Of a stretch of DNA of 64,000 bases, positions 34,324 to 61,045 are shown one piece after another. The DNA is from Marsupella aquatica. Lineage: Eukaryota > Plantae > Marchantiophyta. Every line of letters starts with the position of its first letter. Position 1 is the first letter of the stretch. Position numbers and translations under genes: made by a program. The stretch is from contig OZ316897.1 in NCBI GenBank assembly GCA_973895155.1, forward strand, positions 23,225,455 through 23,289,454, written 5' to 3'. A model generated the notes under the pieces. That model was not told the DNA's origin. It did not search any database and worked only from the letters and a program-made list of their open reading frames with translations.

Positions 34324-37300
34324 TTATTTTGTAGAGATACATGCATGAGAGTGACTTGTCATGCCGGAGCTTAGGGTAGGAAGAGGCAGCATAGGTTTAG
34401 AAGGGCGGACCTAGCATCAGATATTTCCCCCCTCTTGTCCATGTATAGGGTTCTTTGAAGCCCTATCATTTTGTTCATGCTTTTCCATTTTATAAAACAA
34501 CAATTTTGCCTTCCACATTGGGTTCCAAGGAAAACCCCTCGCAAATAATGTATTGAATCCTGTGTGATCATAATTTTGCGAACCCTTTAAGAACTCATTC
34601 CCATCGCACAATATTAACCCCAAGGCGTCGCACTTTTTGAGTCAATTAACTTCAGAACTTCAGATCCAAATATGTCGGGTTTTTGTGATACTTCTAGGAT
34701 CGCACTTTCCTAATCGCAACTGTTCACAAACTTCTGAAATCACCGGTATCGCTCTTTGTCATACAATCCCCATCAAAACAATTGAACCAGTATCAATCGC
34801 AAATATGATGCGATGGTAAATCCATCTCAAATATTGACGCCCGCGCGGGACGTGTGCGTGTATGTTTGCGAACCTTATGCGACGTATAATGGATCGCAGA
34901 AGTATTGAATATTGCGAACCTCTCAGCTTCTCAGTTTGCCATGATGTTGCGATGCCGTTGCGATGGTCCGCGTGCGAAGTTATTAGGTTCGCAAAGTGCG
35001 AAGGGGGTGCGATGCGCGTATGTTCGCAATAGCCAGAATTATGAAAATCAGGGGCTTGTTAGTTGCGATGAGATTGTCTTCGCAAAACCGGCTGATAGTG
35101 TTGTAGTCCAAGAGCTCTCAAATCCCAACTTTCTAAGCTGAAGTCCTTGGTGTAGGATAGTCGCTCTAGATGTGTCAATCGGGTAATTGTAACGTGCGAG
35201 CAAATAGTAGAATTTTTTCTTGCACAAGCAAGTTTTCCCCTTTTATTGGGGCCCAAAATGAGGTCCGAAAACTTCCTCCCTAGCATAAAGACACCTTGTG
35301 ATCACAAAAAAGGAGAAGGAAATGGCATTGAAAATGAGGAAACCTGAGCATATTCGTGTGACCTGAATGTACACGGACCAAAAATTAGGACTGATTTTTA
35401 CTCGACAACTCTTGCCACCTGTTTTAACCTCCATGTCGAATCACTATAAATGACTTTCGCTTCAGGCCAGCAAAATCGCTAGTCCAATCACGCTCACACT
35501 TTGGGTCACTCACACGAGGTACGGGCTCCCACATGGGAAAAATCCTACCCGAGGCAATGAAAAAATGGAAAAGTACAGCGCAATCCCTACGTGACAAGAA
35601 TCCGCACTTCATTAGTGACGAGTCAAGGATGATTAAGGCCGTTTGGAACCTAATCATGTCACATGCGAGTGAACGAGAGAATTACCGTTCCAAACCCAAG
35701 GGGAACCCACTTAAGCAAAGCTTGTCAACCCAAAACCTCCAGTGTTTGGAAGCGTTCTCCCGATCATTTCCTCCTTCTCGAGCTGGACCACACTCGCGGA
35801 TTCGGAACTGCTCTCAGTATTACAAGTCCTCAGCGCTCACCCAAATCAAGTTTGGGTACGCGTCTCTTTGCTATGGCTTTGAATGTTATTCCAGTGAAGA
35901 ACTCTTTGTGAAGGCATTCGATGTTTTTCAGCGTGGAAACGCTTTGCATTTCACTAGTGGATTTCATTTGTGATCATTGTTCTGTTATTTTAAGTGCAAA
36001 GAAATGTTTGGAGTTCCAGCAAATCCTTCTAATGGGAAATGGCAACTCGAGGTCCAGCAGTACAACCCAGCGACGGATGGCCCTCTGGAAGCTGACTCTC
36101 CGCCGAAGCGTCAAACCAATGCAGACATTGGCAAGGTCTCCGCGGGTAGCAGTGTCCCAATTGCACTTGTTCAAAAAGATCCATGTGGTGGGTCATCATC
36201 ATCATTGGCGCAAACACCCACGCCACCAAAGTCAGGTCAACCAGTGAAGTCTCCACTGAAACCAAAGATGAGACACGGGGCGAGGCTGCAACGAAGAGGA
36301 AGAGGCTTGCAAAAGAGGAGCAATATTGGATTGAACAGGAGATCCATGACTACTGGACCGAGAAACGCCTTGCCTCTTCCGATTATGATTCGGAGTCGGA
36401 CACAGACTCTGATGCTTACAAGGCCGCCATCCCCTGAGAAGAGACTCAGTTTCTGGGGTTTACGGACCTCTTCCATGTTGAAAGAAGCATGACATGTACT
36501 CTCAAGATGTATATGAAGTAAAGTTCATGTGTTTATGTCTTGTCTGTTTTGTCCACGGATGACTTGAACAACATTCAAGTCTTTGACTCTTTCTATCCAA
36601 CTTCTGCACCTCTTTGTCGTTGAACATGTCTCTTCTTAGAGAGACAAACATGGACCCTTAGTAGACTAGCAAGATTGCTAGTATAATACTGAAATCATTT
36701 ACATCTTTCCAACTTCAACCATATAGATCCTAGTCTTCAGGTTGAATCTGTTACGGGTTTAAGTTGAGAACATGTTGTCAACAGAGGAAGACTGTAACCA
36801 CTACACTGAACCCATTTAGCAGCCAAGAACTTGAATGTTGTTTAGTACTATCAGCCTATTCATTAAAAGTGTATTATTATTTGATTTATGTACATTTGGG
36901 CAATGAAAAGTGTACATTTGGCCAATGAAAAGTGTACATTTGGGGATAGAAATATGTACAATTGGCCTAAAGAGTGTACATTTTGGCAATGAAAAGTGTA
37001 TATTTGAGCATCAAAATAGGTACATTTGGCTTAAAAATTGTTCATTTGAATACATGTGGCCTAAAAAATGTACAATTGAGTGAAAATGCATACATTTGGC
37101 TTTAGAAGTGTACATTTAAGTGTATTTGGTCTAGAAAGTGTAGCTTTGAGTGCAACAAAGTGTACATTTGGCCTAAAAAGTGTACATTTCCTAGCAACTC
37201 TTATTATAATCATTTAAAAGAAAGGAATGAATAGAAAAATATTTTTATTTATGCAAAACAAACAAACATTCATATTCATAATGATCAAACCTTTAGAAAA

Positions 37301-37463
37301 TGAGGAGATAATATAACTAACACTCAATGGCATGGTCTCACATTAAAACTATTAGAATAGTAAATAACTAGTACGTAACTTACTATGTTAGAATGAGTGA
37401 CTATCTTACATAAAAACTAGTAACTATCTAATTATACCTTGAGTTCACTAGTAACAACTAAGT

Positions 37464-40400
37464 CTACTTGTCCATCCTTTGGAGATAACTTTGGACAGTT
37501 TGTAGAACATTTCGAGGAATCTTCAAACCTCTGCCCGCCATGTTTTCTTCTTTCATTCCAGATTTAAAACCATACATTGCAGAATTTGCATACTGCCAAT
37601 GTTGAGTGTTCTCACCAAACCCTGGATCGCGTTCCCACGTCTTAGTGGACATGAAACAGTTTAGATACCGTGCACTCTCAGTCACATCAAGTTTAGAGTG
37701 TTTAGGCCTCCACCATTCGACTAGAAACATTGGAGCATATTGTTGAGGCAGATGAGGGTTTGTTGAAGCAGTAGTTGGGACTTCATGCTTAGGGTCCACT
37801 GAACCCAAAGCTCTCACCAACCAGAAATGCCCTCCACCATTTTTCTTCTCCCAATCATCCTCGGGTCGAAGAAATACAAAGTTCCCTTCACGAATATCCT
37901 GTAGGGGAATCCACCGTCCTTGTTCTCTCTCAGCTTGAGATCCAACAAATGGTGTTGCTTGATCTTCCATCTCTTCCAAGACCTCATTTTGAAGAGCTGC
38001 CATCTCTGCATTCTCCTCATCATTCTTCACTTGGAGGACCACTTTGTTCTGGTTGGTTGACCTTGTAACCAGTGCCGTGGTTAGTCTTAGGCCAAAACTC
38101 ATTTTTCAAGGGAAATTGATTATTTCCCTCCCCTTCTAGTGCGAGCCCATTTGTCAACAACTCCACAATTCTCTCCCAATATTTCACAAGAGGAAATCTT
38201 TCCTTATATGCTATAGATGTCTCATCAGTGCAACTCTTTCTCAAAAAATCAAGGTACTTGTTAAGAAATGGGATAATCTCTTCAGATTTTTTGTGTATCT
38301 CTCCAATGGATTTAGCTAAGGGCTCTCCACTAGGTAAAAGAAGAGAATTTGTTGTCAGATCTGTTGCCCAAATGCACCTTCCACCAACTGGAGCCCAAGC
38401 CTGCTTTACATGAGACTTATACTGAAAAATATTGGTACATTATCTCTCATAGAGAAAAGAAATGATACGGGTTTTGAGTGACCTTGAATATCTTTAACCT
38501 TGAAAGTTTGAAGATATTCTTTGTAAGATGCAACTTCTTGTATCAATCTGGGAACTGGATGAATGCTCTCACATTCCCAAACCTCTGCCATAAGAGCAAG
38601 GAGAGTTGCAACTTCCTTGTGCTGAACTTGATATGATACCTTCAAAAAGAGTGCATCGACATCTTCATGCGTATGACCAACCATTAGAAAAGACATTTGA
38701 ACAGTTTCAAATACTCCTCTACTCACAAGCTCACTACAAAATGCCATGACAGTCTGGTTTTTGTTATCCTTTGCTGAATTATCCATTTGCAATGTTAGGT
38801 GCCTTGGCAAGGGCTTGAAAGTTGGACTGCCTTGTTCCCCATGCATGTCCCCTCCTTGATCCTCACCATGTTGGGTGGAGACCGTCTCCGTCTGACTCTC
38901 GACTGCATCTTCAGAACCAATATATATACCGATTCATTGGAATACCCTTTGGTTCCAAATATCCCTTAAAAAATGCATCAAAGTCAAGAAGGGCTTGAAA
39001 GAAAGGTCTATGAGGTTCCAAATAAAGGCCATCCAACATGTCACCTGTCTTGTCTCCATTGTACTCCTCAAGGTCTCGAAGACACTTAGCCAAGGATGTC
39101 ACCGTGAAATCGGCATCTCCTGGCCAAAGACCAGTGACACTAAAGTGTGCATAAACTCCTGGATCCCTTCCGTGGGTCAACATCCCTGTGAGAGCAATAG
39201 GTAGTGGCATTCCATGACCTGAAAGCGATTTAGGAGTACTGACCATTTTTGGAATCCACGTCTTTGCTTGATCCATCTTGTCATGAATGATGCAAAGATA
39301 TTCTCCTGGATGTTGCTTGGCCATCACTCGATGAGCATAATAAACATATCTACGTGACATTTGCTCATGAAGATGTTGCGCTCGTTTTTCTTCAATTTCA
39401 GCACGTTCTTTTTTCCTTCTTTCTCACATCAAAATATCTTTGTATTCACAACAAAGAGTACACTTGGCAAATGCGCCATCTTTATGGAAACTAAAGTTTG
39501 CGAATGATTTGCTCCAAATCTTGTACAGAGTATTCTCTGTAACTGGAGGAAGCCCCTCTTCCTTCATCTTTGTTCTCACATCTTCTAGAATCTCCAACTT
39601 CTTGTAACACGCTGGAAGACGATACTCAATGGAGTCTGTTCCATGAGCCCCAGCATAAGGTATATGAGGCATGGGCTCCGCATTTCGAGTCAAAAAATCC
39701 TCCAATAGAGCTCGCGCATGCAAGGTATTTGACCTTGTTTTCATGGAGCCTGTGTTTCCATGGAACCCAATTTTGCAACCTTCCACAGATCTCCTTTTGT
39801 AATCATAATATTTTGTGTGGCTAAAGCCATGGATGATTGCAAATGCATGTCTACATACGACCATACCCTTGAGAACATGGTGCCCCTTATCACGAACATC
39901 ATCTTCTCTATAGTGGAAGAGGTTGAAAATGTGTGATGTTTTTGACTCGCTAGACATACCGTGAAATTCTATCCGAATATCTTCTATGTCTTCTCTTGGC
40001 ATAGTCAGACAACATTTCTGCTTGCAACAATTCTCTCTTTTAATTTCATCAATCGAAGCTTCCGTTGTTTTTGAAATTGCCTTGGTTTCCAACAACCTTC
40101 TCTTCTTTTCAATCGGATCTACATGACTCCTCTTGTTGAAATTGTATGGCCTTGTGCGCGGCATTCCTTTGTCATTTATATTTGGACAGAGATCATCCCT
40201 ATCCACTGACTCCATCCTCTCTGAACCTTCAACCAAAATGTCCGACAAAAATTTCCCATTTGCAAGTAGTTTTGTTGAATCAATTCGCCATCAAACCAAA
40301 GTAATTACTCCCCTATGGATGTTGGGAAAGTATTGTGATTCCACCACATCTTTCACAGCAATCCCGACATGGTCCTCGCCAAGGATTTCATCATCAACCA

Positions 40401-41217
40401 CCACTGTTTGTTGAGGCACTGTGATAGTCCCTGTGGCAACCTTATTGGTTTGATCTGAACCAATGTATAGTTCGACCAACTCTGACATCCAATTTGACCG
40501 TTGGAAATAGTCACAATTAGTTTTAGAAATTTCAGCTGACGGAGACTCCACAACAAAACTCCGCTCTATGTCAATATTGTCACCCGCATCCGTCTTTGAG
40601 CAACTCTTTCTACTTTGGACATCCGCCACATCCCAGAGAACCCATGAGTCTTTTGCCTCGTCAATTGTTTCAGCCCCACTATGTTTGTAAGGTAAAACCC
40701 TTCTCCCATGAATGATATTAGTGACCCTCACACTGATCCGTGATTCACCAAGTAAAATGTTGTGACATCTGTCCATTGGATTTGTATTAAAAACAACTCC
40801 AAGGGCTACACAACACCCAAAGATGAACATTTCCACCTCGTCCCCTTGCCTCAGAGTAGTTGATGAGTCCTCCTCTACAATTGGGATTTTCTCCAAATTA
40901 CTCTCCAGTCAATTTGAACAACTACCTACACTGATGCGTTTTTGAGAATTTGTTGTTGTTGATAGATATGCGCATGACAAATCCCAAATAACGCAAGAAT
41001 CAATGGCATCAAAAAGGTTTTCTGCCCGAGGCATCGGAAATGGTAGTTTTGCGGTTCGGTCAAAAACTTTGTCAATGAGAACACCAATTTGATTCTCTCT
41101 CAACAATATATTTTGAACACTATCCTCCGGGTTGATTTTTTGAACTATCCCGCTTGCAACGTTGTAACCGTCAATAGTCAATATCACATTGTCGCCTCTC
41201 ACAAATATTCCCATCAT
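37464..41217 (-). pseudogene. Transposase of copy 2: ancestral ~1250-aa exon broken by TGA stops and frameshifts
   Basis: ORFs starting at 41217, 40896, 40248 and 39360 share one frame, separated by TGA codons (CGA or CGG in copy 1 where it can be compared). Same DDE motifs as copy 1. Splice acceptor tgcag near 41225. Confidence 0.85.
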
Positions 41218-41354
41218 TCTTTCACCTGCACAATTTGAAATGTAAATTATTAGTTAAAGATGATCCCAACTAGGAAGCGAAAAGTTGTCAATCCTATCCA
41301 AGGACAACGCATATGAAGCAAAAAAAAACCTGAACCTAATACTCACACTACGTC

Positions 41355-42815
41355 GATGATCCCTATCTAGCCCTAAAATCCCTTGTTACTAAATATCCAG
41401 ACATTGGACAGGGATGATCCCTGTCCAAACAACGGATAGGGATGATCCTTGTCCAAACAACGGATAAGAATGATCCCTGTCCAAATGGAGGATAGGGTGA
41501 TCCTTGTCCAAACACTGGATAGGGTGATCCTTGTCCTGAAAATGCATAGGGATGATCCCTGTCCAAAAGGCGGATACGGATGATCGTTGTCCAAAACGGT
41601 TAATAGGGATGATCCGTGAGTGTCTAAATATTAGATAGGGATGAACCCTATCCAAATGGCGGATGAAGATGATCCCTATCCAAAAGGCGGATAGAGATGA
41701 AAGAGTCCAAAAGATAGATAGGGTTGATCCTGTCCAAATTGCGGACAGGGTCAATCCCTGTCTACATGATGGATAGGGTTATATGATCCCTATCCAAAAA
41801 TATGGATAGAGATGATCCCTGTCCAAATGGCTAATAGAGATGATCCCAGTCCAAACGACAGATAGGGATGATCCCTGACCAAATGGCGGATAGAGATGAT
41901 CCTTGTCCAAATGGTTGATAGGGATGATCCCTGTCCAAATAGCTGATATGGATGATTGTTGCCCAAACGGTGGATAGGGATGATCCCTGTCCAAACAGCG
42001 GATGAAGATGATCCCTGTCCAAAAGGCGAATAGAGATGATAGAGTCCAAAAGACACATAGGGATGATCCTGTCCAAATTGCGGACAAGGATGATCCCTGT
42101 CTACATGATGGATAGGGTCATATGATCCCTGTCCAAAAAGGTGGATAGAGATGATCCCTGTCTAAATGGCTGAAAGAGATGATCCTTGTCCAAACGGCGG
42201 ATAGGGCTGATCCCTGCCCAAATGGCGGATAGAGATGATCCCTGTCCAAATGGTTGATAGGGATGATCCCTGTCCAAATGGTTGATATTGATGATCCATG
42301 TCCAAACGGCGGATAGGGCTGATCCTTGTCCAAATGGCGGATAGAGATGATCCCTGTCCAAATGGTTGATATGAATGATCCCTGTCCAAATGGTTGATAG
42401 GAATGATCCTTGTCCAAATAGCGGATATGGATGATCCCTGCCCAAATGGCGGATAGAGATGATCTTTGTCCAAATGGCGGATAGAGATGATCCCTGTCCA
42501 AACACTTGACATGGATAGGGATCATCTCTATCCAAATAGCAGACATGGACAATCCAAGTATGTGAACTTGATCTAAAGATAGTAAGATCCCTGTCCAAAT
42601 GGTGGATAGGGATGATCCCTATCCAAACACTTGACAAGGACAATCCAAGTATTTAAGTAGACTTGATCTCTAGACAATAAAATCCCTGTCCAAATGGTGG
42701 ATAGGGATGATCCCTATCCAAACAGCTGACAAGGACAATGCAAGTATTTAACACTAGAATTGATCTCTAGACAATAAAATCCCTATCCAAATGGTGGATA
42801 GGGATGATCCCTATC
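41355..42815. repeat. Tandem array of a ~28-bp unit built on the palindrome TGGATAGRGAT-G-ATCYCTRTCCA
   Basis: Dozens of units such as ggatagggatgatccctgtccaaatggc, with higher-order duplication (block near 41760-41830 repeats near 42100-42170). Confidence 0.95.
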
Positions 42816-43919
42816 GTGAGTTTCACTAGGATCTTCTCAATTCAATAAAATCAAACAACACTAGGTAACTTAGTTATATGATTTCAAAATTTGCAAATAT
42901 CAATGGAATATTTTTCAATGGAGCAATTAATTGAGAGTTACCTGTATTGGAAATGATTCTTGAACCCCAAACTCACTTGACTTTATGCTATCATTTTACT
43001 AGTCAACCAAATGACTAAAATATAGTGTTGAAGGGTAGCTATATGTAAGCTGGTTAACTAGATGCTTCAATAGTGTAGAAGGAACAAATTTTCTTGCATA
43101 TATCTAAAATAAAAGAGGAGAGGTTAAAACTGGATGTTTGGCGGTTCTTTTAAATTCCAAAGTTTCTCAATGGAGCTCCATAATAAACGGAGCTCGTTGA
43201 GAGACTGAATGAAAATCTAAGAAGGAAAATAACAATGAGGTCGCTCGCGGGGTTCTTATACCATTGTTCAAGAGGGATGGAGCGTAATTCTCGCTGTCAA
43301 AGATGAGGCAAAGCGATAAGGCGCAATCGACCTTCACCAGCGGCGGAGGGTTAGGGCTTGTTTGAGGGTTGCGCCTCACTAGTGGCCGTACTTTGCATTT
43401 GGTCTCACATAGTCGGTCGTACATCCTCGGCCTCACATCATTGGCCGTACATCATCGGCCTCCCCCCTGGGAGGGGGTAAAGGAGGCAAGAGGTCCTCTC
43501 TTGACCTCATTCTTCATTTCCTCCTCTTGTGATTCTCCTCCTTCTCCTCCGCTCCTCCTCCTCCTCTGCTCTTGCTCCTGTTGCGCTCCTCTTACTCTTG
43601 CTCCTCTTGTGCTCGATCCTCTCGCTCATCTTGATCCTCCTATGTGCTTCCGCTTCTCTTCTGCTTCCTCCTCCATTGCTACTCAGTCTCCACCGCCGCC
43701 ACATTAGTTGCCCTAGATCTAACGCCTCTTGATCCGCCATGTGTCCAGATTGCCACGTGTTCAAATATGGAGTCAAGTAGGCCTATTCAAGTGGACTTGA
43801 CTACAGAGCCAACAGAGGAGACGGATCTCTCCTCCATTGCGGACGTGGTAGACACGGCCTTGGAGGATTCTAGAGCCTTTCAGTTGCTCAACCCAAGTGA
43901 GTACCTCAAGTTTTAGGCA

Positions 43920-44420
43920 CCGGACAGAGATCATCCTTGTCCAGTTGGATAGAGATGATCTCCATCCAAGTAGACGATAGTGATGATTTCTATTAGTAAT
44001 TCGATACGGATCATTCCCATCCTGTCCAGTTGGATAGAGATGATCTTCATCCAAGTAGAGGATAGTGATGATTTCTATTAGTAATTCGATACGGATCATT
44101 CCCATCCTGTCTATGGATAGAGATCATCCCTGTCCAGTTGGATAGAGATGATCTCCATCCAAGTAGAGGATAGTGATGATTTCTATTAGTAATTCGATAC
44201 GGATCATTCCCATCCTGTCTATGGATAGAGATCATCCCTGTCCAATTGGATAGAGATGATCTCCATCCAGTGATGATTTCTATTAGTAATTCGATACGGA
44301 TCATTCCCATCTTGTCTATGGATAGAGATCATCCCTGTCCAGTTGGATAGAGATGATCTCTATCCAAGCATAGGATAGTAAAGTTGGATAGAGATGTTAG
44401 TAATTCAATACAAATCGTTA
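43920..44420. repeat. ~105-bp tandem repeats containing the same palindrome; the array resumes at 48421-48745 after the LTR-like insertion
   Basis: Units ggatagagatcatccctgtccagttggatagagatgatctccatcc...tagtaattcgatacggatcattccc. Perfect palindrome ttggatagagat-g-atctctatccaa at 44343-44367. Confidence 0.9.
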
Positions 44421-44778: not shown

Positions 44779-44785
44779 TATAAAA
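44779..44785 (+). promoter_or_regulatory. TATA box of the LTR-like element
   Basis: TATAAAAGGGG ~105 bp upstream of ATG 44887, conserved in the other copy (~916-926, minus strand). Confidence 0.55.
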
Positions 44786-47388: not shown

Positions 47389-48799
47389 CGCGGCGAGGCA
47401 AGAGAACGAATCTCTGCTGGACCAGGTCCAGCTCCTCAAAGCGGACAATGACAGGCTTCGAAGGCAGCGGGATGGCCGTTCCCATTCGGGCGGCTTTGGC
47501 AAGCGTGCCAGGCATTAGCGGCAAAGTAGGAATAGATTAGGATTAGGATTGGCTTAGTCAGGCTCTTGGGACAGGCACCTGCCTTAGGTACAGCAGCGCT
47601 GCCCTGCTGTCCAGCCTGCGTAAATTAGGATCTTCTAATAAGACATAGCCGTTTTCCGGCCTGACTGTCAGCTTAGTTAGGACCTTAGTCAGCGAATCTT
47701 CAGCGTGAGGACACCCCGTTCCTCGGCTCTTAGTATTTAGTGCACCCCTCTGTAGAGGCAGGGGGGTTTTTAGTTTCAGAGTCGGACATCCGCGGGACAT
47801 GCGGGGAGTCTCGACCTCTGGGAATGACAGAGTACCAAGGGGAGGGGGTAGGACTAAGCTCGCCGGGTGAGTGCGGAGCCGGGCTCCGTTGTAGTGTGCA
47901 CCCTCGGCCTTGAACCTGTGCATTCCAGGGCTGTCGTGTCAACTAAGTGTACGCATATGTTCCCTTTGTAGTAAAATCCTTTCCCATCATTTTTCCTTCG
48001 TGTAAATCGAGATTGTATACATGTGTGCGCATATGTGTGTGGGTTTCTCGTATACGGGTGGCAGCGCCGGGCCGAACGCACTACCCGAGATGTGCACAGG
48101 GTGCAGCCTGCGGGTAAGTGGTTGCGAGCACGGGTTGAGGACCTGTATCATCGAATCCGGATCGAAGGCGGACAGCACGAAGGCTTAGAAGCCCTTAAGC
48201 CGGGGTTGATCCTGCTATCGACTAAGGTACGTTCTGGCGGTGGAACACAAACCATACCTAGGAGGTGTCCGTATGTAGCAGTATGCGCACTTAGCGCTAG
48301 TTTACGAGAATAAGGTGCATTACGTGCTTCCCTTCCTGCCCGAACCCTCAGATTTACGAGGGATGTGCCCGTCTAAGCTGAAGTCTGAGTTAAGGCCGAA
48401 GCCTACGACGTGACACGTTAACATTCTCTACTTGGATAGAGATCATCCCTGTCCAGTTGGATAGAGATGATCTCTATCCACATAGTGGGTAGAGATGATT
48501 TAAAGTTTTTAAAAGGTTTTGGATCTTTCTCGTCCTTTGCCCCATCATCCGCCTAGATAGAGATCATCCCTTTGTAGTTCTCTATCCAAGCAAAGGGTAG
48601 TGATGATTTGAATTAGTAATTGCATATAGATCATTCCTATCCTATGACTGAAATCATCTCTGTCCAGTTGGACAGGGATGATCTCTATCCAAGGAAGGGA
48701 GAGTGACCTCTAGTTGGAATCGGATAGAGATCATCTCTGTCCAAACTTATAGAGAACCCCAAATTTCCAGTGACAAAACTAATAACCAGGTCAGAGGTG

Positions 48800-51700
48800 G
48801 CTCTTCCAATAATGGAGGTGAATGACACTTGGATGGAGGATGCGACGGGGGACACACCCCGGCGTAGGAAGGGCGAACAGGCTTTTCGGGAGGGACACAA
48901 TTTCTCTCCGGGTGGACGGGCACGTATCTAGGAAAATAGGATCATTGGCTCCTTGGTTGCGGTTCACACAACATGATGAGAACTGTACGCATTGTAACAT
49001 GGAATGTTTGTGGCTTATGCAAGCCAAACCGAAAAAACATCGTTAAAAATTGGATTGAAGGCCGCAGAGAGAAGATTGATATCATGGCGCTACAAGAAAT
49101 CAAGGCCGACCAATTCCGGCTTGATATCGCTCTAAGAGCAATACTACCACTATACCAGCACTTAACATCTGCCCCGGATGAGGGCAGAGGAGGCTCTGCC
49201 CTGCAACTGCATCCGGACCTTAAGATTGTAGCACGGGGAGTTGTTGATTTGGGTAGAGTTGTGTGGGCACGGATTGAGGTTGACGACATCACTTTTGGCA
49301 TTGTAAGCATTTACACACCTAATTCCCCTTGCCAGAGGGCGGGCCTATGGCATGAGCTGAAGCAACTCCTCCCCTAGGGAGACTGGATTCTAGGGGGTGA
49401 TTTCAACATGACGGAACTTCGAGAAGATTCTACGGGAATTTCTCCTCTGATTAAGGGACGAGAAGCAGAGTTCTGGCGCTTCTTGAGAGTCAGATTGGAC
49501 TTGGTCGATGCTATAAGGATTAAAGGAGAAGCCATGGGCGCACATTTCACCGCAGGTTCAGGAATACGGGAACAGTGCAGTCAAGACTGGATAGATTTTA
49601 TTTCAGCGGAAAAGGAGAATGGATAGAAGAACTCACGGAATTGATTCATGATGGGGGATCTACGCTTTCGGATCACGACCCAGTGGTGATAATAATTGGA
49701 CTGGGAGAGCGGACGAACAACACTCCCCTCCTTAGGGGGGCAGTTTTGTTCAAGGCCGATCCTACAGTGGTCAGATACCAGGAAAATTTGATTGCTCTAG
49801 AGGGCGCATGGAACGCTGGAAAGGGAGGATGCATGGAGCCGTTGCTGGCGTTCGATCGAGCTAGTAGTAGGATGCGCCAGATGTATAGGATGAAACAGAG
49901 CTCCCCAAAAGAACGGGCGGAAGAGATGAGGGTGCTGCAAAATAAGCTACGGGAATGCAAGGAGGCTTTACTGGATGCCCATTCGGAGGATGATCTGAGA
50001 ACGTATGTCGAAGCAGAAGATCTTTTGCATGTTGCTGAATTAGAAGAAGCACATATAAGTAGACATCATGCCAGGATCAAATGGCTGGGTGAAGGGGATG
50101 AGCCCACCCGTTTTTATTTTGCTATAGTGAAAGCTAAGAGAAGCAGGGAGGCCATGAGGACTCTGTCAACGGAGGGAGGAGGTACTATTAATGAGCCGAT
50201 GGCTATTCTTCAGGAAGTGATATGACACTGTAAAGAACTATATGCCCCCCCTCCTCTTACAACCGGGGAGCACCGAGAGCGGCTGAGAGCAAGGAGCACC
50301 CTCCTAGCTCACACTAGACATACAGTAACCATATCAGATTTGAATAGGATGGAAGCATTGCCCACTAGCGAGGAAATCAAGCAAACTCTCTGGCTACTGC
50401 CGTCGGATAAAGCCCCAGGCCCGGATGGTATGACTGCTGAGGTTTATCGGGCCTATTGGGAGTTTATGGGAGTGGACATAGTGGCAATGATACATGTTTT
50501 CTGGCTGACAGGTAAACTGGCTGCAGGAGTGAAAGATGGGATTATTAAATTTATTCCGAAGAAGCCGGATAAACGTTTCTTGAAGGACTGGAGACCCCTG
50601 ACTATGTTGAACACGATTTACAAGCTTATTGCTAAGATCTTGGCCAATAGATTGAAGCTGGTTCTAGTTAAGCTCATCAACGTACAGCAGACAGGGTTCA
50701 TCCCGGGCAGGAATATTTTGGAGAACATTTCGCTTGCCTGGCTAACATGTGATTGGGTTAAGAACAGGAAAGTGGAATCCCTGTTTCTTAAGTTGGACTT
50801 TGAGAAGGCCTTTGATAGAGTAGATCATGAGTACATTTGGGAATCAATGCATCTGCTAGGGATTGGCAGCAACTTTATCAGGTTGGTACAGGAATTACTA
50901 AGGGACTCATCTTCGCGAATACAGGTTAACGGTTTGCTGTCAGAACCGATGGGCGTGGAGCGGGGCGTTAGACAGGGCTGCCCGCTTTCACCCTTACTGT
51001 TCGTTATCTCCACTCAACCACTCATGGATCTCATGGATGCTGAGCTTGAGGCGGGAAGATTACTGGGGATCAAAATCACGGATGAGCTAACAATATGCTA
51101 TAGGTTATTTGCGGATGACATGGGGATGTTTATCCCTGCCACTTTGAGGAGCTTTACAATGGCCACAACTGTTTTGCATTGCTATGAAACAGCAACTGGT
51201 GCAAAACTCAACCTGCGGAAATCCATTGTCATCCCACTATCACTGGATACTATACCAAGGTGGCTGTCAAATACAGGTTGCGTGATTAGTCACAAAGGAG
51301 AGCTACAGAAGTACCTGGGTGCTCCCCTGGGGGTAGACTTGAAGACGGAGCAACTGCATAGATTTGTTCTAGATAAAATCGGCATGCGCTTATCCTCCTG
51401 GGCAAATAAACTTTTGTCCTTTTCAGGGCGGGCACTTCTGGTGAGACATTTTACAGGCTATTCCTATTTACCACTCCATGTTCCTAAGAGCGTCTGAGGG
51501 ACTTGCGAAGAAAATGATTGCGCTGTGCCGGGACTTTTTATGGGGATACAACTCGGAGGGGGGCAAGAGGATCCCTCTTGTTTCTTGGGCCAGAATGGCC
51601 AGACCTAGGATGGAGGGGGGACTCGGGCTGAAAGACTTCCGCAGCCACTCTGACGCTCTGTTAGCCAAATGGTTCACTGGAGCTCTAGATTGCCCGGAGA

Positions 51701-53100
51701 CGGAATGGGCCTCTCTCTTTGCAGAAAATCTCAAAATAGTGCGCTGGATGAATTATAAGTGGATACGCTGGAACAAGTACTCCTTTCAGGATAAGATGTT
51801 GTTATGCAGCCCTCGGTCCTTCAATGGACTGGCATATACTGGAGGACTGTGGAAGGCGTGGGTACAACTTTGTTCCCACCTGATATTTGCACCCACTGTT
51901 ATGATACCTGGTAGGTGGAATATCATGGACACTATACGCTGTCTCATTGGTTTCCAATCCTGGCCCAACACAAATTTTGCTGTGGTCACTGTGCTGTGTG
52001 GCCGAATGGGCATCAGAGGCATTCAGGATTTATGGTCTGCTGAACAGAATGAGTGGCGTAATCTGAATGAGCAACTAGAACACCTTCAAGGCTTTACTCC
52101 GCTTGAGAAAACTTGCTGCAGGGAGTTCTTACAGAAGGTCAGTGCTATAGATGGTTGCAGGATGAACTATGTTACTGGTTCCCGATGCTGGAGATGGGCT
52201 GACAGACCTGATACTATCAATACTTTTAGGATATCCAATCTAAGGGCATACATGTTGATTCGCCCCCCCCATCAGAGACTACGACAGCCTGAATCACACT
52301 TGGGGTAGCTTGAAAACGGAAGGTGAATGGAATGCTGGGTGGAGTGGACTGTGGCGCTCTGACCTTTCCTCCCGTGCTAAGACTTTTCTTTGGAGAATAT
52401 TGGCTTCAGGTCTCTTTACCGGTGTTCGAGCAAGACGCATTGATAAAGGAGAAGGGCACTGTAAACTGTGTAGTGGAGAAATAGAAACTATCCCCCATCT
52501 TTTTGCACAGTGCGTTCATGCCAAGAGATGTTGGTCACTTGCTGCCACTTGTTTTTCAGGAACCTTTACAGATTACTCGGGTAGACTACTAGATCTACTG
52601 ATTCTCACAACATCGAAGGACCCTAACACAGTAGCCAAACTATTTATTCTCTATCAGATCCTTTGGTCTTTATGGCAGAGCAGGAATGTACACATGTTTC
52701 AGGCCAATGGCTTTAGGACATTTGATCTTTGCTTTACCCTCTCAGAGGCTGTTGACCATGCATCGGCGGTGGGCCTGTGTTTACCCCCGAGCAGATGACA
52801 CACACGATTGTTACGAGTGAAGGAGATCCTTATTCAGGAAAGATTAGTGTGGCTTAACAGCCGGCAGACTTGGATCACATCTAGATAGGAACTATGCTGG
52901 CCAATGGGGAATGCAGTACTTGAGCTCTACTTTCACCTGGTGTGGATCACTGTTTTCGTGGTGGACAGCCTAGTCTCTAGGCTTTCATCACATGTTGTTG
53001 TTTCCGCTCTTCAGGCGGGGTGGTTGATTGTGTGTTGCGGGTCACTTTCCTGTTTTCCTTGCCACGGGGTTTTCGTGGTCACTAATAAATTAAGAAAAAA
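48800..53100 (+). mobile_element. Degenerate L1-type LINE (ORF2: AP endonuclease, reverse transcriptase, zf-RVT); 5' boundary approximate
   Basis: IVTWNVCGL, LQEIK, GGDFNM, SRLDRFY, SDHDP, KAPGPDG, WRPLTMLN, KLDFEKAFDRV, GVRQGCPLSP, LFADD, KYLG, CKLC...ETIPHLFAQC. Stops and frameshifts throughout. Ends aataaattaagaaaaaa at ~53084-53100. Confidence 0.93.
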
Positions 53101-54769
53101 CATTTCCAAGGAATAATTATGCATGGTTGTGGCAATTCAGGGAGTACTCTCAATGCATTGAAACCACCAATTTCAGAGGCAGATTGTTCTGAGGGAGTCT
53201 TGCTTGAGCAGAGCAACCCAGACTTCCATTGGGGCCTTGAGTTCTCCAGAGTTGATTTTGATTATCTTAGCACAACAAAGAGACGGGAACCCGTGTTGTG
53301 CATAAAGGTCAGAACGTCAGAAGGGGAGACTCTTGTAATTGGACCTGTAGTCTTCGTTGGAATTGAAGGAAGGGGATTTGTTTCCGTCATTCTTGAGCTC
53401 CATGAAAGAATAAGGTGGGTTAAACTTCATCTTCCGTCAAAGGCATATTCCTCCGAGTTCAATATTGAGTGGTCTGCTGTTGGAGAACTTGGCGTGTTGT
53501 CAATGGGATTTTTCCCAAAATCATATTCAGCTCAGAAAGTTATTGCAGGGGTGAAGGGGATTCTTCCACTCGACATCATGTATGGCTTCCAATATGTGAA
53601 GCTAAATATCCATAAAAACCAAGGGAATTACACAATCCCGGTTACATGGGTTTTAAATAATCTGCTTGACAAGGCAGGTTTACTATCTTCAGAGTTAAGT
53701 GTTTGGCTTGACAGGAACATTGCATTTGATGAGGAGTTTGTGATGGATAATGCAAAAAAGTGGATAAATTCATTACCCAAGCCGACAAATGTTCCACCAG
53801 TAGCGGTGAAAGAGCTTCCACTAGTAGTTGTGAACACGGAAGTTCCCAAGCCACCAAAGTATCCCAGGAGACAACAGGGACTGCAAGAACAACAGCTGGG
53901 ACCGCAGGAACAACAACTGGAACAAGCACCAAAAGAGTGGTAGGGAAGCGGAGAAAAAGAGAGAGCAAGGAGCACGAGAAAATTGAGACACTGCCAAAGG
54001 AACCCGAGAAGAAGCCAGTAGGGAAGAAGAAACAGAAGACTGACAAGTCTATCATGCAGTCAACCCCTGCAGAAGTACAGATGCTCCCAGAAGATGAGGG
54101 AGACAAACTTGATGCCCCTGAGGAGAAGAAGGTCTTAGAAGGAAATGATGTTCTCCAAAGAATAGAGCAGTACTATACTTTTGGGATAAATGAACTGTTT
54201 TCTATTCCAGTGGAGAAAATTATGCCTGCACCAGCAAGATTATGTTACAGAATGCTCAATAGTACCCATGTGAAGCACATAGCCGAATCCATGGTCAAAA
54301 ACCCTGGACATGAACCTCATGTTGCAGACCTGCTTCCTTACAATCCAAAGCTTAGAAAGTTGCTCCATTTTGATAGCACGGAGAACGACCGCAAAGACTT
54401 TCTTGCAGGTGTGAAGAAAGGCGAGATTGGTTTCTTTGCCATCAGCGGGCAACATTCGGCTAGGGCGGCCAAGTGGGTTATCGAATGGGCCAAAACTGAT
54501 GCCAAGCTCACAGTGTTGGCAAAAAAGTTAAAATACAAGAAGTCTAGATTATTGTCAGACCTTACACCATCGGCTATATTAGTTGAGCACTCAATGAGAT
54601 CAAATGCCATCAATTCGACGATGGTGTTTCAATCGTGCTTCAAAGATACAATTGTTCATGCAAGGAAACAATTCATTGAATGCAGAGCACCAAGAAAGCC
54701 AAAGCACGGGGACAACAAGTCAAACGCCCAAGACAATCAGAAATTTCAGGTGAGAAACGTATTTTCTTG

Positions 54770-55120
54770 TTTGGATAGAGATGGTCTCTGTCCAAGAGTG
54801 TGACCGCCCGTTACACTGATTTTAGTTCAATATATTTTTTGGTTATGACTTGGATGGAGATGATCTTTGTCCAAGAGAGAGACCGTCCGTTACATTGATT
54901 TTAGTTCAACACATGTTTTGGTTATGACTTGGATGGAGATGGTCTCTGTCCAAGAGTGAGACCGTCCGTTTCAAAGATTTTACTTCATTCTACTTTTGGT
55001 TTTGACTTGGATGGAGATGGTCTCTGTCCAAGAGTGTGACCGTCCGTTCTAGAGATTTTACTTCATTCTACTTTTGGTTTTGACTTGGATGGAGATGGTC
55101 TCTGTCCAAGAGTGTGACTT
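54770..55120. repeat. ~63-80-bp tandem repeats inside the predicted intron, each with a palindrome variant TTGGATGGAGATGGTCTCTGTCCAA
   Basis: Five units visible between donor 54750 and acceptor 55169. Confidence 0.9.
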
Positions 55121-57818
55121 TTGGTTTATTTAGATAACTCATAACATTCCCCCCAATTTTTGATTGCAGGATTATTTAGCACTGGCAAGGATGACCATGG
55201 GGAGAAAAGCCTTGAAAAATGTATACTGGTTGCTTTTTGCCCAGAATGATCTTTTTGAGTTATGGCAGTTAGTGTGCCAGATGTGGATTGATGGAAATCT
55301 TCCTGATGGAGCTGGTACACAAGGAAACAAAAGGTCTGAAAAGGCAATAACAGTCGCAATGTTTCATTGTTTTGATGGTAAAATCTCAAATAGAGATTTG
55401 ACCAAAATTTTGAGCAAGGTGAAGTCAGGTCAGGTTTTATTGAAGAAGGATCCGACAAATAAGTCAGATGTTCCAACGATGGAGGAGTTTGCAAAGGAGG
55501 TGAAGATATTGATCAAATTGAAGTCTCTTATTGGAGATTACTACTTCAAGAAGGATCCAAAAAACTTCCCAGCAGATACTCAATGGGTTAAAGTAATTGA
55601 GGTCCTCCCATTGTTAAGTGCCGAGTCAGAGTTGAACAGGTGCCGAAGAGCGGCTGGTGAAGTATGGTTGACAAATTTATTGAAGTCTAATCATACAAAG
55701 GAGAGTGAGATATTGCCAATGACATTGGTGATGCGTCTAGATGATATTTACTGTCAGAAGTTTGGCGGTGGGACAAGTTCTCGGACCCAACCGTGGGTCA
55801 CATTTTTTAGTAACAACCTAATGAAGACAGTGGATCTGGAGTCGTTGGAAGAACAATCTCCAACATGCCCTCTTGCGATTGTTGATTTCAGCCAACTTCA
55901 ACAGAAGGAGTGGACTGAAGCAGAGATTTTGGTCCTCTTCCAATATATAGTAGAGCTACCACGGAATCCCACCATTGTTGTGATGATAACTGTCCATCCG
56001 GGTTATCTTGTACTGAATGTCCTAAGCGCTCTTCGTAAATTAGGACATTCAAAAACTTTAAGCATTCACATTGAGTATGGGAGTTATTCTCGAGATGATC
56101 AACCTCACCCTCATGACTCATGTTGGAAGGGAGGAATAGAAGAAGTTATCTTTGCCAGAATTTCTCGCAAAGAAAATGTCAGCTGGGATGAAGTGTTCAA
56201 GCCCAACCAAATGAAGCCAAAATGGGTGTATGGTGAAAAGGATACTGATTTTGTCGTTGAGAAGATCAAAGGGAATGGAACGGCGAAGGGAAAGAACACG
56301 GACGAGGAGTCAATGGATGAAGATCTACGAATTGTGATGACCCTAGAAGAGGCGACAATACTTCTGCACATGGCACCTCGATTTGAGACTGTTGGGGCTC
56401 GCGGTGGATGGGTGAATCCTCATGCCAAACCCACCCGGATGATCCAAAAGATCATCCAAACATTATCCGAACCAGGGGATTTGATTCTTGACTTTTTCTC
56501 TGGCGGTCAAGTGATAAAGACATCCCTTTTTTCTCAACGTGAATGTTTTGTTTATTGTGACTCTCAACATGAGAGACATTTTTTGGAAGCATACGCTTCG
56601 TTCCTTTGCGAGAGGGTTCCCACCATCAAAGATCGTTATGATTGCTATGTTGGTGGATGTTCTAGACATTGGGAACCCTCTTCTGCCGCTGTTGCTATTC
56701 ATGATGAATCAGATGGTGATCAAGAAGATGGAGCTGACCAATCAGTCAAAGGTGATGGGCCATCGGAGGGTGCATATGTGAAGAATTTGGATGACCGAGT
56801 TGGCGAGGGTGAAGATATTGACCTTGTGGAAGACGACATGATTGTTGGATCTGCACCTTGTAGTTCACCAATTACAGATGTTGCCCCCATGGGCCCCAAC
56901 GAGGGCCAGTTTGATGATAACTTGGATAGAGATGGTCTCCATCCACAAGTGCCTGGACAAGAGATGGAGAAAATGAGAGAATCAGAAGTTGATACATTTG
57001 AGAAACTTTCTTCAAACAACCTTCTCAATCAAGGTGCGGAGAGGCATGGTGAGTCCAATGAACTTGACACATTGGGATTGAGAGCAGAGACCATCCAAGT
57101 ACCTGACATTCCCGTCAATGAAGCAAGTGCATCCACGACTGCTGACAACCAGGCAGGTGCTTCAATTTGTCCCAATACACTCTTTTCCGCTTCTGATGAC
57201 AAATTAGTGTTTGTTCGGTCACAATCAAGAAGTCCTGTTATCCTTCCGATCTCAAAAAAGAAAGGAAAGAGAGTAGCATCAATGGGATATAAGTCACTTG
57301 AATATGATTGCCGATGTTACGTGTGGAAAAGTGGACCAGATGTAGGAACCGAAGTACCGTTGGATGCTGCTCAATCAATTTTGAACAATGACTTACAAAA
57401 AGCATAAGAAAGATCCAGCTTATAGAAGCGGAGAATTGGGATTGATGACTCCAGTTTGGTCTGCACCTTATTGGGTAGAGGAGAGTACCTCCGATGTCAA
57501 TTATGAGATCCAACAGGAGCTCGATGATGATATCTTGATTGATGAATATGGATCTCATTGTTAGCCAAGGGCTAAGATTTAGCCATGTGACCTTATCAAT
57601 TTGATATAATATAGTCTGTATAATTATACTTCAAGCGCGCCTAACAATTAGAGCATAAGTATCAATATCCATTTCCTTGTTACGGTTGCTCAATGAATAC
57701 GGTCAGTATGCAGATTTTCTTTGTGGTTGGCCACTTGTGTTTTTTGGATGGAGACAATCTCTATCCAAACTTCAAATGTGGTTTTCTCTCTAAGATTGGT
57801 ATTTGTTGCACTTGCAGA

Positions 57819-58850
57819 ACCAAGACCTTCCATCAAGCGCAAATTGCTGATTTTGGATCTTAACAAAATACTTTGGGATTCGGTTGAATTCCAAAGCAAG
57901 GGCAAATCCAGAAATGTTGTGACCCCAAGTGGAGTGCATTGGGATAGAAAAAATGGAATTAGTCGCATGTATACAGAAAGGCCAGGGCTCCATGAGTTTC
58001 TAAAGTTGGTTTTTGACCAATTTGATGTTGCGATTTGGACATGTGCTGGGGTACAGCGAACAGTGAAAATGTTGAACATGATGTTCATCGTTGAAGAGCG
58101 GTTGAAACTTAAGTTTGTATTCACACACGTGGAAGCCTTTGACACAGGCATTCAAAGGCGTGACATTACAAACGGAAAGGCAAATGTGCTACTGAAGGAT
58201 TTTCGGGTGGTATGGAGTGGATTTGGAAATCTATATGATGAAACCAACACCCTCCTTGTGGATGACTCCCCCCTTAAGGCATTTGCCAACCCAAGATTCA
58301 CCGGACTATTTCCAGTGCCCTACACGCATGCCAATCGTGGAGATAATTTTCTTCTAAAAATTCTTTGGCCTTGTCTTGAGAAACTATCACATGCAAGTGA
58401 CATTAGATGTTATCTTCTTCTGAACTCTCCACTGTGGTCTCTATTGAACATAAAGAGAGACAAGGTAAAAAATGAAATTACTTATGATCAACTTAGTAAG
58501 AGATGTGCAACAAAAATTTGGAAGTCACAGTTTACGCATAGTGTGTTGGACCTCAATAGCAATGAGATTCCTTGGAATGTGAAGCATCGTATATGTAGTT
58601 TACGTACTGAGGCAGAACTTGACGATGCACTTGTCACCTCACTTGCTAAAGCATTTGTAGGATGAGACTATTCAGGTCCGTATAGAGAAAATCCCAGACA
58701 CTTTTTGCGGGAGATTATAGCCATTAGGAACAACACCACCAAGTTTCAGCTCCCTGAAGATAAAGGGACTTGCAACTGTGACAATAGGGTAGATAGTAAA
58801 GGAGACAGGGGCACGTGCTCAAATACACATTGTAAGGAGCACTTTGTTTA
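57819..58850 (+). pseudogene. FCP1/SCP-like (NIF, HAD-superfamily) phosphatase-domain cargo ORF
   Basis: KRKLLILDLNKIL; ERPGLHEFL...FDVAIWT; KDF; NTLLVDDSPLKAFANP. Acceptor ttgcag at ~57813-57818. TGA at 58663-58665 is followed by an open Cys-rich frame to 58850, so it is probably a premature stop. Confidence 0.75.
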
Positions 58851-61045
58851 GAGATCTGACTCATGTTAAGCCCCTTAGATAGAAGAAATACATTGTAAAT
58901 TTGGAGATAATTGTATATTATTTTATAATCTATTTGGAGTTATGTCATGATTTTGTTCACACATATTAAAGGGCTTCTTTGTGCTGAAATGTTTTCATAA
59001 GTATGATCTCTATCCTACTATTCTTTGTGAATTAATAACTAATGATCTCTATCCTATTATTCTTTGTGAATTAATAAATAATATAATATATATTATTTAT
59101 TAATATAATACTAATATGATTTGGCCTATAAAGTGTACATTTAGGGATCAAAAAGTGTACATTTGGGTTTCTTAAAGTGTACATTTGGGGACATGAAAGT
59201 GTACATTTCAAGACTGATTTGTGAACAAAAGAAAATACACTTTTAATGAATAGACTGAACTCTGTATTGTACCCTAACCCTAAATTGTATCTCACTAATT
59301 TGGAGAGTTTCTCAGACTAGCGAGATCACTAGCATAATACTGACATCATTTTGATCATTACAACTTCAACCACACAAAAACTAGTCTCCAAGTTTAATTT
59401 GTTACGGGTTAAGTCTAGAACATGTAGTCAACAGAGGAGGATTGTAACCCCTCTACTAAACCCATTTACCATCCTAGATCTTGAAGGTCTTGTGTCAAGT
59501 TTGAAAATTGAATCCCGTTTGGAGAATTCCGAAGACTAGCGAGATATTAGGGAGAATCACCTCGCTAACATTAGGGAGATTCACTCAGGTTCTTAAAGAT
59601 TACAGAAGAAGGAACCAGTTGAACTAGAACTAGTCCTATAAGGTATGGTCTAAATTGCCCCGGCTAGATCCCCTCCTGGCGCATAGAGATGAGAACACCA
59701 GCTCGATTGAAGTTACTCTATGAGGAGAAGACAATTGCAAAAGACTCCTGCTCTGAGGAGACGATGAGTGTGAAAGAACGATCAAACTGTTAGGAATGGA
59801 GATGAGCCCAAAGGTCCAAATGAGATATAGTGGATTTTGGGAGCCTCAGATCCTACAAAACGGTTTTGGGTTCCAATCCTTTCACGCTTGAATGATGCAG
59901 AAGGGTGCATTGGATTCTATCGTGACATGAGCTCTCATATTGCTGGCGCTGAAACCATTTGTTTTTGTGCTTTCTCATGAGTGCATTTTCATGTGGGTCA
60001 AGTCCGCACAAAGTATTTTGTGCAAGAATCACATATACAATTATGGCTAGCAATTTTGCTAGCCTGATGTATGTTGGAATTCTATAATGTTCAATTATGA
60101 GGCCGTGCACTCACCTTCATGATTGGGGAATACGTATTATGTACCAATAGCCCCATGCCCGTGTGTTGCACAAAAGATGTTGAGTGAGGTCAAGATGTTG
60201 AGGTGAGGGCAAGATTTTGAGTGTCTGAGGGCAAGATGTCAAGGTGAGGGCAAGATTCCGAGTGAGGACTTAATGTCGAGGTGAATTGTGGTGGGTACCC
60301 CGTCACGGGAAGTCACACATAACTGGTCACGGAGGCCTATGCATTGTTAATAACCATTGTAAATAAGCTGTTTTTTTAATTTTCGAGTTAATTCCATCCT
60401 TTCAAGTTGGTGCTGCCGGGAGGACTTTACTTTATTTTGTTTTCTTCTCAGAATTGTTCTAAACGGTCACGGCAACCTAGGGAGGGAACTCAGTCTAGTG
60501 TTTGCTTAGGGAAGTTAGCTCATAGCCAGAAGAGGGAATCAAGCCAGAGTAGTGAGGTAGAGGTGTAACACTTGCCCCAGTGAGGCAGTAGTTGGGCAGA
60601 CGGCAAGAGGCTGGGTTGTCCTTGTTACGACGTTTTGCCAAAAGATATGGATTTGGTTTGATTCCTCAAGTTTTGGTGTGGCGTTATTTTTTCGAGTTCA
60701 CGATTGTGTTCTTTCCCCAAGAAGTGTCTAAAGAATACTTGCACGGATTGGTCGACCATGTGAGTAGGGGGGGTGGTGACAGCACTCCACCAGCGACCAG
60801 TAGGAGTGTGTGTGTGGCATAGTCCATGGGACTTGATCAAAAGCAGCGGGACTAGTCGGTAGACTTGATCAAAAACTACATTTTTGGGAGCGAAAATAAA
60901 CATACTCATCCTACATGCAATAGAATCCTAATAACGTCCCTCCAAGTTCTCGTCATACGATAACAAATGATTTTAGTAGGAGTAAATACATATTTGTTGT
61001 GTAAATCGTTTGATAAGCAGGTGACATAAGTATGATCCTTGTTTT

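Follow-up and report, generated by a model that had tools for sequence, protein, structure and literature searches.

A large, decayed Sola-like transposon of the liverwort Marsupella aquatica that very probably carries ParB-like, methyltransferase-like and NIF-like cargo and its own palindromic motif

General features of the locus

The window analysed here is a stretch of 64,000 nucleotides from the liverwort Marsupella aquatica (GenBank assembly GCA_973895155.1, contig OZ316897.1, positions 23,225,455 to 23,289,454 of the forward strand), and all coordinates refer to it. It holds a decayed transposon bounded by terminal inverted repeats (TIRs) at 36851..59258, called here the element or copy 1, and a second family member near the window start, called copy 2. 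The element encodes a DUF7869 transposase on the minus strand and, divergently, two cargo genes on the plus strand, an arrangement of leftward transposase and rightward cargo already described in the first-pass annotation of this DNA. The features of the family are listed below; ORF stands for open reading frame, LTR for long terminal repeat and LINE for long interspersed nuclear element.

1284-4807, plus strand: copy 2, comprising a TIR, a subterminal array and the greater part of the transposase
3652-4152 (in copy 2), plus strand: transposase C-terminal domain, about 110 aa, conserved
36851..36876, plus strand: left TIR, 25 bp, or 26 bp with the terminal T; flank ACTA
36889..37190, plus strand: left subterminal array of 22-bp TGTACA units
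37464..41229, minus strand: DDD-type transposase (DUF7869, putatively Sola-like) of about 1200 codons, disrupted by stops and frameshifts
40294-41253, minus strand: transposase N-terminal repeats, small repeated domains
41404..42820, no strand: palindrome array upstream of the transposase ORF, 28-bp period with 38.9 copies, then 95-bp period
42943..43766, no strand: central region separating the divergent genes; probably their common promoter
43767..43896, plus strand: putative first cargo exon, from ATG to a GT donor, without homologue support
43920..44370, no strand: left part of a palindrome array in putative cargo intron 1, 85-108-bp units
44421-48415, plus strand: insert 1, TG..CA, solo-LTR-like, 3995 bp, with the 5-bp duplication CGTTA; outside the core, no palindromes
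48421..48784, no strand: right part of the same array, continuous with 43920-44370 before the TG..CA insertion
48785..53100 (approximate), plus strand: insert 2, a 5′-truncated LINE with Exo_endo_phos, RVT_1 and zf-RVT; outside the core, no palindromes
53119..54749, plus strand: N-terminal half of cargo gene 1, with an N-terminal domain, basic linker and ParB/Srx-fold domain carrying AISGQHS; one frameshift
54750..55169, plus strand: cargo intron with five palindromes in 78-79-bp units; junction spanned by the Calypogeia proteins P0002 and P0049
55170..57561, plus strand: last exon of cargo gene 1, with a helical region, beta-class amino-methyltransferase fold, acidic linker and conserved C-terminal domain
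57818..58851, plus strand: NIF/FCP1-like gene with a DLNK motif and Cys-rich tail
59129..59210, plus strand: right subterminal array of four 22-bp TGTACA units
59233..59258, minus strand: right TIR, 23/25 match to the left TIR; flank ACTC

Termini, nested inserts and second copy

From TIR to TIR the element spans 22,408 bp, and a core of 14,073 bp is left once both nested inserts are subtracted, in agreement with the 22.4 kb and approximately 14 kb given earlier. The TIR 25-mer starting at 36852 has an inverted match ending at 59257 (23/25) and another ending at 4805 (25/25), and no further match was found in the window at up to seven mismatches. Twelve of the 22-bp TGTACA units (three mismatches or fewer) are found at the left end, at 36906-37190; copy 2 also carries 12 subterminal units, and the units have identical orientation at the left and right ends of the element. 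The left array is likely to represent transposase binding sites.

A 4-bp target-site duplication (TSD), as looked for at TIR pairs of this kind, is at best imperfect here. If the terminal T/A is counted as TIR the flanks read ACTA/ACTC, agreeing at three of four positions; if it is not, they read CTAT/AACT and there is no duplication. A 176-bp direct repeat, 81% alike, is common to both flanks (36663-36838 and 59314-59488), which fits insertion of the element into an older, tandemly duplicated repeat.

The TG..CA insert and the LINE are younger than the element they interrupt. The former has no internal repeat; its one ORF of approximately 830 codons contains one stop, has a coiled-coil end and gave no confident Pfam match. 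A second TG..CA copy at 1-1284 is 97-98% alike to that at 44421-48415. Each of the two has inserted into a member of this transposon family, at a site of its own, which may reflect a target preference of the insert. A weak relative of the insert is present at 11020-11295. Copy 2, the second family member that had been reported at 1284-4806, is 94.2% identical to copy 1 over 3537 columns. Because the TG..CA insert that cuts it extends past the window edge, the cargo side of copy 2 is not visible.

Transposase

The transposase of copy 2 matches Pfam DUF7869 with an E value of 1e-42, and two of the stops in the copy 1 transposase correspond to CG>TG changes when compared with copy 2. Full-length homologues are approximately 1100 aa long. 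Invariant Asp residues lie in HDKMD, QMDN and GHTHEDVD; in a 45-row alignment D51/D54, D216 and D256/D258 are invariant in the 35-43 rows covering them, the triad being assigned by pattern. There are 184 relatives at E <= 1e-10; among the best 120 of these, Calypogeia fissa stands on top (66%) and many are Riccia sorocarpa models. In trees, the transposase and the cargo of the window both group with Calypogeia proteins.

We call the enzyme Sola-like, a label suggested by its TIR length, DDD residues and probable 4-bp TSD, all of which fit Sola, yet the AWWT target preference of Sola1 is absent from all three flanks seen, under either terminus. The TIRs of 25-26 bp fall within the Sola range of 11-1124 bp. 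The first-pass assignment to a Sola1/DUF7869-like group is thus upheld for DUF7869 and not for the Sola1 target preference. DUF7869 may be equivalent to Sola1, as that annotation has it; DUF7869 was not named in any paper found in the literature search.

The conserved C-terminal domain appeared BAH/Tudor-like by eye, a resemblance that was unconfirmed by Pfam, a PDB profile search or the Atlas.

Cargo gene 1

The ParB-like and methyltransferase-like exons constitute one gene, because Calypogeia proteins span the intron between them. A search of 1.84 billion representatives with the exon ending at 54749 returned 84 relatives at E <= 0.001, many of which have the N-terminal domain and intron position in common with the window gene; no single-copy host parent is found among the 84. 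Both domain names, ParB-like and methyltransferase-like, are backed by predicted folds, which agree with the names first proposed.

The ParB-like fold was taken from a model of the top relative, homologue P0038 (predicted local distance difference test score, pLDDT, 83). This model matches ParB, Noc and sulfiredoxin, with a best Foldseek E value of 3.7e-3, and in a structure comparison with 48,161 chains the six highest-ranking ones all belonged to the ParB/Srx family (Z 5.7-7.7). Its N-terminal domain gave weak PH-like matches (Z <= 5). The GxxR box of ParB carries an arginine; here GQHS stands in its place: all 59 rows have His, 55 of 59 have Ser and none has Arg. A helical region follows, spanned by none of the structure matches listed, and no helix-turn-helix (HTH) match adjoining the ParB-like domain was found among them.

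Residues 223-498 of the model of the last exon form a complete, permuted Rossmann fold of the methyltransferase type (CcrM: Z 14.8, root-mean-square deviation 3.8, 197 residues aligned; best Foldseek E value 4.8e-6). Motif I, which would bind S-adenosylmethionine, reads DFFSGG; LDFFSGG aligns to LDFFAGSG of M.RsrI (E 1e-7), one residue shorter, and the window protein and 9/10 homologues retain the pattern D-F-F/L-S-G. Motif IV, (D/N/S)PP(Y/F/W), is absent from the window protein and all ten homologues. The window protein has DFSQ at this position, where DFSR, DFGR, DFTR, DFAR and DLTH also occur, and the first Asp is kept in eight of the ten homologues. A frameshift lies near 57400, and the acidic linker holds one in-frame palindrome.

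DUF3723, a fungal domain that we take to be a Starship accessory gene, was the nearest Atlas family of exon 54111-54749 (<=0.80, a lead only); Pfam found it in none of 59 homologues. A metagenome scan with the cargo alignment returned 52 loci, all of them short matches to the motif I region of apparently prokaryotic methyltransferases, and none matched the ParB-like profile. A phage ParB-methylase origin is a lead only: the Riccia full-length cargo protein had no phage match, and the ParB-like domain no PHROG match.

Cargo gene 2

The second cargo product scores 58.9 bits against Pfam NIF (cut-off 21.8), which bears out its description as FCP1-like, and its nearest solved relative is UBLCP1 (E 6e-13). 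Most of its 15 relatives have a Cys-rich tail too. FCP1/SCP (HAD-IIID) phosphatases are typified by the motif DxDx(T/V). The corresponding first motif is DLNK in the window protein, and DLNK, DLNG, DCNG, DLEK or EVEK in 12 of the 13 homologues covering it; the canonical form is found neither in the window protein nor in those 12.

All three enzyme-like domains thus lack a canonical catalytic residue (GQHS, DFxx, DLNK), and the altered motifs are conserved. For this reason DNA-modifying and phosphatase activity of the cargo, as judged from these motifs, is doubtful, and we do not retain the earlier wording of “DNA-modifying and phosphatase effectors”.

A 25-bp palindrome confined to the family

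A 25-bp palindrome with the centre GATGATC/GATCATC is scattered through the element. It has 48 matches at three or fewer mismatches, 47 in the element and one in copy 2, and none in 100 shuffles. A matrix scan with an 8-bit cut-off gave 62 sites in the element core and two in copy 2, and zero in the TG..CA insert, the LINE or the approximately 38 kb outside; the inside sites served to train the matrix, which leaves the zero counts alone as independent. The earlier observation that one palindrome ties the parts together is therefore sustained.

The densest arrays flank the probable shared promoter rather than the element ends. That at 41404..42820 is probably located in a 5′ intron of the transposase gene, judging by splice consensus. 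Further palindromes precede the NIF exon or stand close to the right TIR, at a distance of 240 bp, and others are in frame within coding exons at 40182, 38871 and 56922. The tandem units differ in period (28, 78-79, 85-108 and 95 bp), which together with the in-frame copies points to selection on the DNA site.

One variant of the palindrome occupies a hypervariable loop of the transposase, at 38871-38895 and again at 2730-2754. At this loop Calypogeia transposases retain exactly ETVST and the remaining homologues in the alignment do not, which hints at conservation of the DNA site within the nearest family. The peptides that the palindrome would encode are found in none of the 270 proteins collected, save for ETVS in four Calypogeia transposases and at two unrelated places.

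Cargo in other copies and other liverworts

Four of six listed sequencing runs, from two studies and one possibly of the source sample, were used to look for further copies of the cargo, their contigs being aligned to 30 cargo bins that stop short of the right end of the element; contig depth was not taken as copy number. All 30 bins are covered, by 684-4431 contigs per run in four identity classes. A listed cargo site can have as many as 22 variant contigs, a number incompatible with a single-copy gene, and the cargo is therefore multi-copy. The NIF stop at 58663-58665 reads TGG in most of the depth of all four runs. A joint that skips the LINE was seen in two of the four, in one contig each, both runs being from the same study.

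Cargo homologues are found in two liverworts, Calypogeia and Riccia sorocarpa. At least 12 dispersed cargo gene models are present in R. sorocarpa among those looked up. R1sor_025532 fuses ParB-like, methyltransferase and NIF parts in the order of the window, and R1sor_021779 (cargo) adjoins R1sor_021778 (DUF7869 transposase). Of the 12 Riccia cargo tags, five have one of the 99 transposase tags seen no more than 12 tags away; the expectation is 1.0 near pairs for random placement (p 0.002) and 1.3 for local shifting (p 0.006), with the threshold chosen post hoc. These liverwort genes constitute an unannotated family, labelled “hypothetical”, “DNA methylase” or “FCP1” host genes. The cargo recurs in liverworts in the same order and, with multiple copies in all four runs, does not consist of single-copy host genes, the outcome that would have told against the first-pass annotation.

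Interpretation

We consider it very probable that the 22.4 kb represent one mobile element with the cargo as an integral part. The function of that cargo is a more tentative matter. The reading we prefer, and put forward as plausible rather than established, is that of a dead 14-kb Sola-like cut-and-paste transposon whose cargo protein binds the element's own palindrome, likely without catalysis, and so keeps the chromatin open for transposase expression. It starts from what is observed at the locus: the boundaries, the gene content and order, the predicted folds, the motif changes, the confinement of the palindrome and the multi-copy cargo. The transposase would bind the TIRs and the 22-bp subterminal units and cut. 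The cargo protein would recognize the palindrome arrays on either side of the shared promoter and throughout the introns of its own gene, and the symmetry of the site makes a dimer its probable form; sequence reading may fall to the methyltransferase fold, and dimerisation or spreading to the ParB-like domain. The NIF-like protein might be a partner or decoy and not a canonical phosphatase. The outcome would be local relief of silencing, by analogy with the action of VANC on VANDAL elements.

Several observations weigh against this reading. Between copies 1 and 2, 32% of CG, 16% of CHG and 3% of CHH sites differ, and CpG observed/expected is 0.4-0.5 in the transposase and cargo, like that in neighbouring transposons; judged from this decay, methylation acted on both copies over a large part of their history. 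As both are dead, the decay speaks of past methylation and not of inactivity of an intact element. The TSD is imperfect, with at most three of four positions alike. Only one of the 12 Riccia cargo tags directly adjoins a transposase (p 0.12), the five near pairs do not match by subfamily in a quick tree, and neither of two Calypogeia cargo accessions is near any of the seven transposase accessions seen. Transposase and cargo between one TIR pair were seen in this one copy only; no second full-length element was seen. On the structural side, the ParB match is modest and was modelled on a homologue 57% identical to the window domain, and the methyltransferase model has a whole-model mean pLDDT of 53 and was built from seven sequences. 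The N-terminal repeats of the transposase could equally bind the palindrome.

That last point belongs to the alternative that survives best, though we think it unlikely: the cargo would be a transposition cofactor that binds the internal palindromes to condense or bridge the 14-kb element, or that partners the transposase, or the N-terminal repeats would themselves bind the palindromes. The second proteins of Harbinger, CACTA and MuDR act as transposase partners. A ParB-type fold would suit such a role, as would palindromes along the whole element, both ORFs included; the methylation-type decay speaks against lasting protection; and the N-terminal repeats gave weak matches to Transposase_23, a CACTA TnpA-type family (best E 6.6e-4). 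Against it, the densest arrays are at the shared promoter region and not at the ends, which are already served by a separate 22-bp array, and a methyltransferase fold with a C-terminal-domain (CTD)-phosphatase-like protein would better suit control of chromatin or transcription. Transposase-accessory interactions are known for Mutator-like elements (MULE), Harbinger and CACTA (PMC12973397).

Somewhat less probable again is a methyltransferase domain that is active in a non-canonical way, writing N6-methyladenine (6mA) or N4-methylcytosine (4mC) at the GATC-containing palindromes and so marking the element as self. The beta-class fold is complete, motif I is kept in the window protein and nine of ten homologues, motif IV retains its first Asp in eight of ten, and the palindrome has GATGATC/GATCATC at its centre. 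Eukaryotes have recruited such enzymes before, as in Marchantia MpDN4MT1 and bdelloid N4CMT. On the other side stand the absence of (D/N/S)PP(Y/F/W) from the window protein and 10/10 homologues, a motif I one residue shorter than that of M.RsrI, and the finding that changing SPPY to APPA abolishes N4CMT activity (PMC8885841). A wider proposal is equally improbable, namely that in bryophyte Sola-like elements a prokaryote-derived ParB-methyltransferase loads at parS-like palindromes, spreads and writes 6mA/4mC via a non-canonical site, while an FCP1-like partner resets RNA polymerase II locally. If true, such self-marking would be a transposon-encoded system independent of VANC.

There is little reason to think that the 22.4 kb are not one mobile unit, with TIRs that stem from two insertions brought together by recombination or mis-assembly and with cargo that is a separate repeat of transposon-rich regions. 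Such a chimera would account for the imperfect TSD, the subfamily mismatch of the Riccia near pairs and the want of adjacency among the Calypogeia accessions seen, and the 176-bp flank repeat (81%) could promote recombination. That repeat also fits insertion into one tandemly duplicated sequence, however; the palindrome is confined to the family, within which it occurs in the transposase ORF, both cargo introns and a position 240 bp short of the right TIR; both ends have the 22-bp unit in common; and cargo and transposase are direct neighbours in Riccia.

Passive, Pack-type capture of host genes, with the palindrome a neutral by-product of tandem duplication, is very unlikely: although a host subfamily of DLNG type is similar to the NIF-like protein (P0019: 32% across 47% of the query) and every ORF of this copy is broken, the domain order and intron position of the full-length cargo are kept across very divergent homologues, the NIF stop is missing in other copies and no single-copy host parent occurs among the 84 relatives.

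Other features of the window

The remaining features of the window are given below.

~12500-13846, plus strand: a second N6_N4_Mtase-like gene, broken (Pfam E 6e-4; PHROG DNA methyltransferase E 4.6e-6)
16606-20109, minus strand: intact PPR-E-DYW RNA-editing gene, 1168 aa, with 303-bp internal repeats, isolated among transposons
22951-24337, plus strand: broken PIF/Harbinger transposase (Plant_tran)
26166-30075, minus strand: CACTA/EnSpm transposase (Transposase_21, DUF4218)
32271-33371, plus strand: divergent ORF of the CACTA/EnSpm element, without a Pfam match
61240-63180, plus strand: retrotransposon gag with zinc knuckle

A SET-domain ORF (Pfam E 4.5e-6, above the cut-off) is located directly upstream of the CACTA/EnSpm transposase, which makes this the second transposon in the window with chromatin-type cargo. 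The methyltransferase-like gene at ~12500-13846 had no BLAST match among the proteins collected here and therefore belongs to a family other than that of the cargo.

Comparison with known systems

The Sola superfamily of DNA transposons was reportedly the subject of Bao et al. 2009. Its features, as summarised in PMC10741241, are short TIRs (11-1124 bp), a DDD transposase and a 4-bp TSD, and Sola1 prefers AWWT targets (PMC3845634). A survey of active plant TIR elements up to 12 kb in length includes four large moss and fern Sola clusters of 9.9-11.2 kb, with 26-32-bp TIRs, a 4-bp TSD, GGG or AAC termini and no accessory annotation, cluster_4006, 4007 and 4009 of Ceratodon and Cibotium among them (PMC12973397, Table S2); N6_N4_Mtase and NIF were not found in its supplement as searched, sequence cells excluded. 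Like those of Sola, the element is large, has short TIRs, resides in a bryophyte and encodes a DDD transposase whose Asp residues are invariant; a 4-bp TSD, though imperfect, is probable. It differs in its (T)CAG termini, in flanks that depart from AWWT, and in its accessory genes and internal palindrome arrays, which are undescribed in the Sola literature searched. The literature searched, without subscription journals, Repbase reports or the Sola paper of 2009, contained no description of this gene set, and to that extent the first-pass remark that no description of the combination is known stands.

The beta-class N6A/N4C enzymes (M.CcrM, M.MboIIA, M.RsrI, M.PvuII, N4CMT and MpDN4MT1) and the cargo protein have the permuted fold and motif I in common. 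The cargo protein differs in having DFxx at motif IV, in its fusion behind a ParB/Srx-fold domain and in its many transposon copies; N4CMT and MpDN4MT1 are host genes with SPPY. Inactive adenine methyltransferase domains occur on DIRS1-type elements, and a chlorophyte Dam is fused to a ParB-HTH (PMC4738411). These offer precedents for a likely inactive methyltransferase on a mobile element and for a ParB-related fusion. Both belong to group 2, being carried by retroelements or joined to a ParB-type HTH in algae and chytrids, whereas here a group-1 beta-class fold and a ParB/Srx N-terminal fold are predicted on a bryophyte TIR element. Like the CTP-dependent clamps ParB and Noc with their parS and NBS sites, the cargo combines a ParB/Srx fold with clustered palindromic sites beside its gene, but the Arg of GxxR is replaced by Ser, no HTH match was found and the context is a eukaryotic transposon.

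In its layout the element parallels VANDAL21, where the motifs targeted by VANC occupy tandem repeats located upstream of the transposase gene, as well as introns of the accessory genes (PMC5735166). Here too a transposon-encoded accessory gene accompanies element-specific motif arrays upstream of the transposase and in accessory introns. VANDAL elements are Mutator-like, in contrast to the DUF7869 transposase of this element; the VANC target is a 9-bp directional motif and not a 25-bp palindrome; and demethylation has been demonstrated for VANC, whereas for the present cargo it is putative. No DUF1985/PMD (VANC protein) Pfam family was found in the window proteins or homologues scanned. The logic would thus be that of VANDAL/VANC, achieved with unrelated proteins.

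Sequence-specific anti-silencing support in plant transposons is context-specific and rare (PMC12973397). Very few cases of sequence-specific anti-silencing by plant transposons are at hand, chiefly VANC in eudicots. An active methyltransferase would make a transposon a source of 6mA/4mC in plants, and an inactive one would be a programmable-looking DNA reader. With the protein and its probable 25-bp target both in hand the idea is directly testable, and beside VANC the element would be a second, independently built anti-silencing candidate, assembled from prokaryote-type parts in the oldest land-plant lineages.

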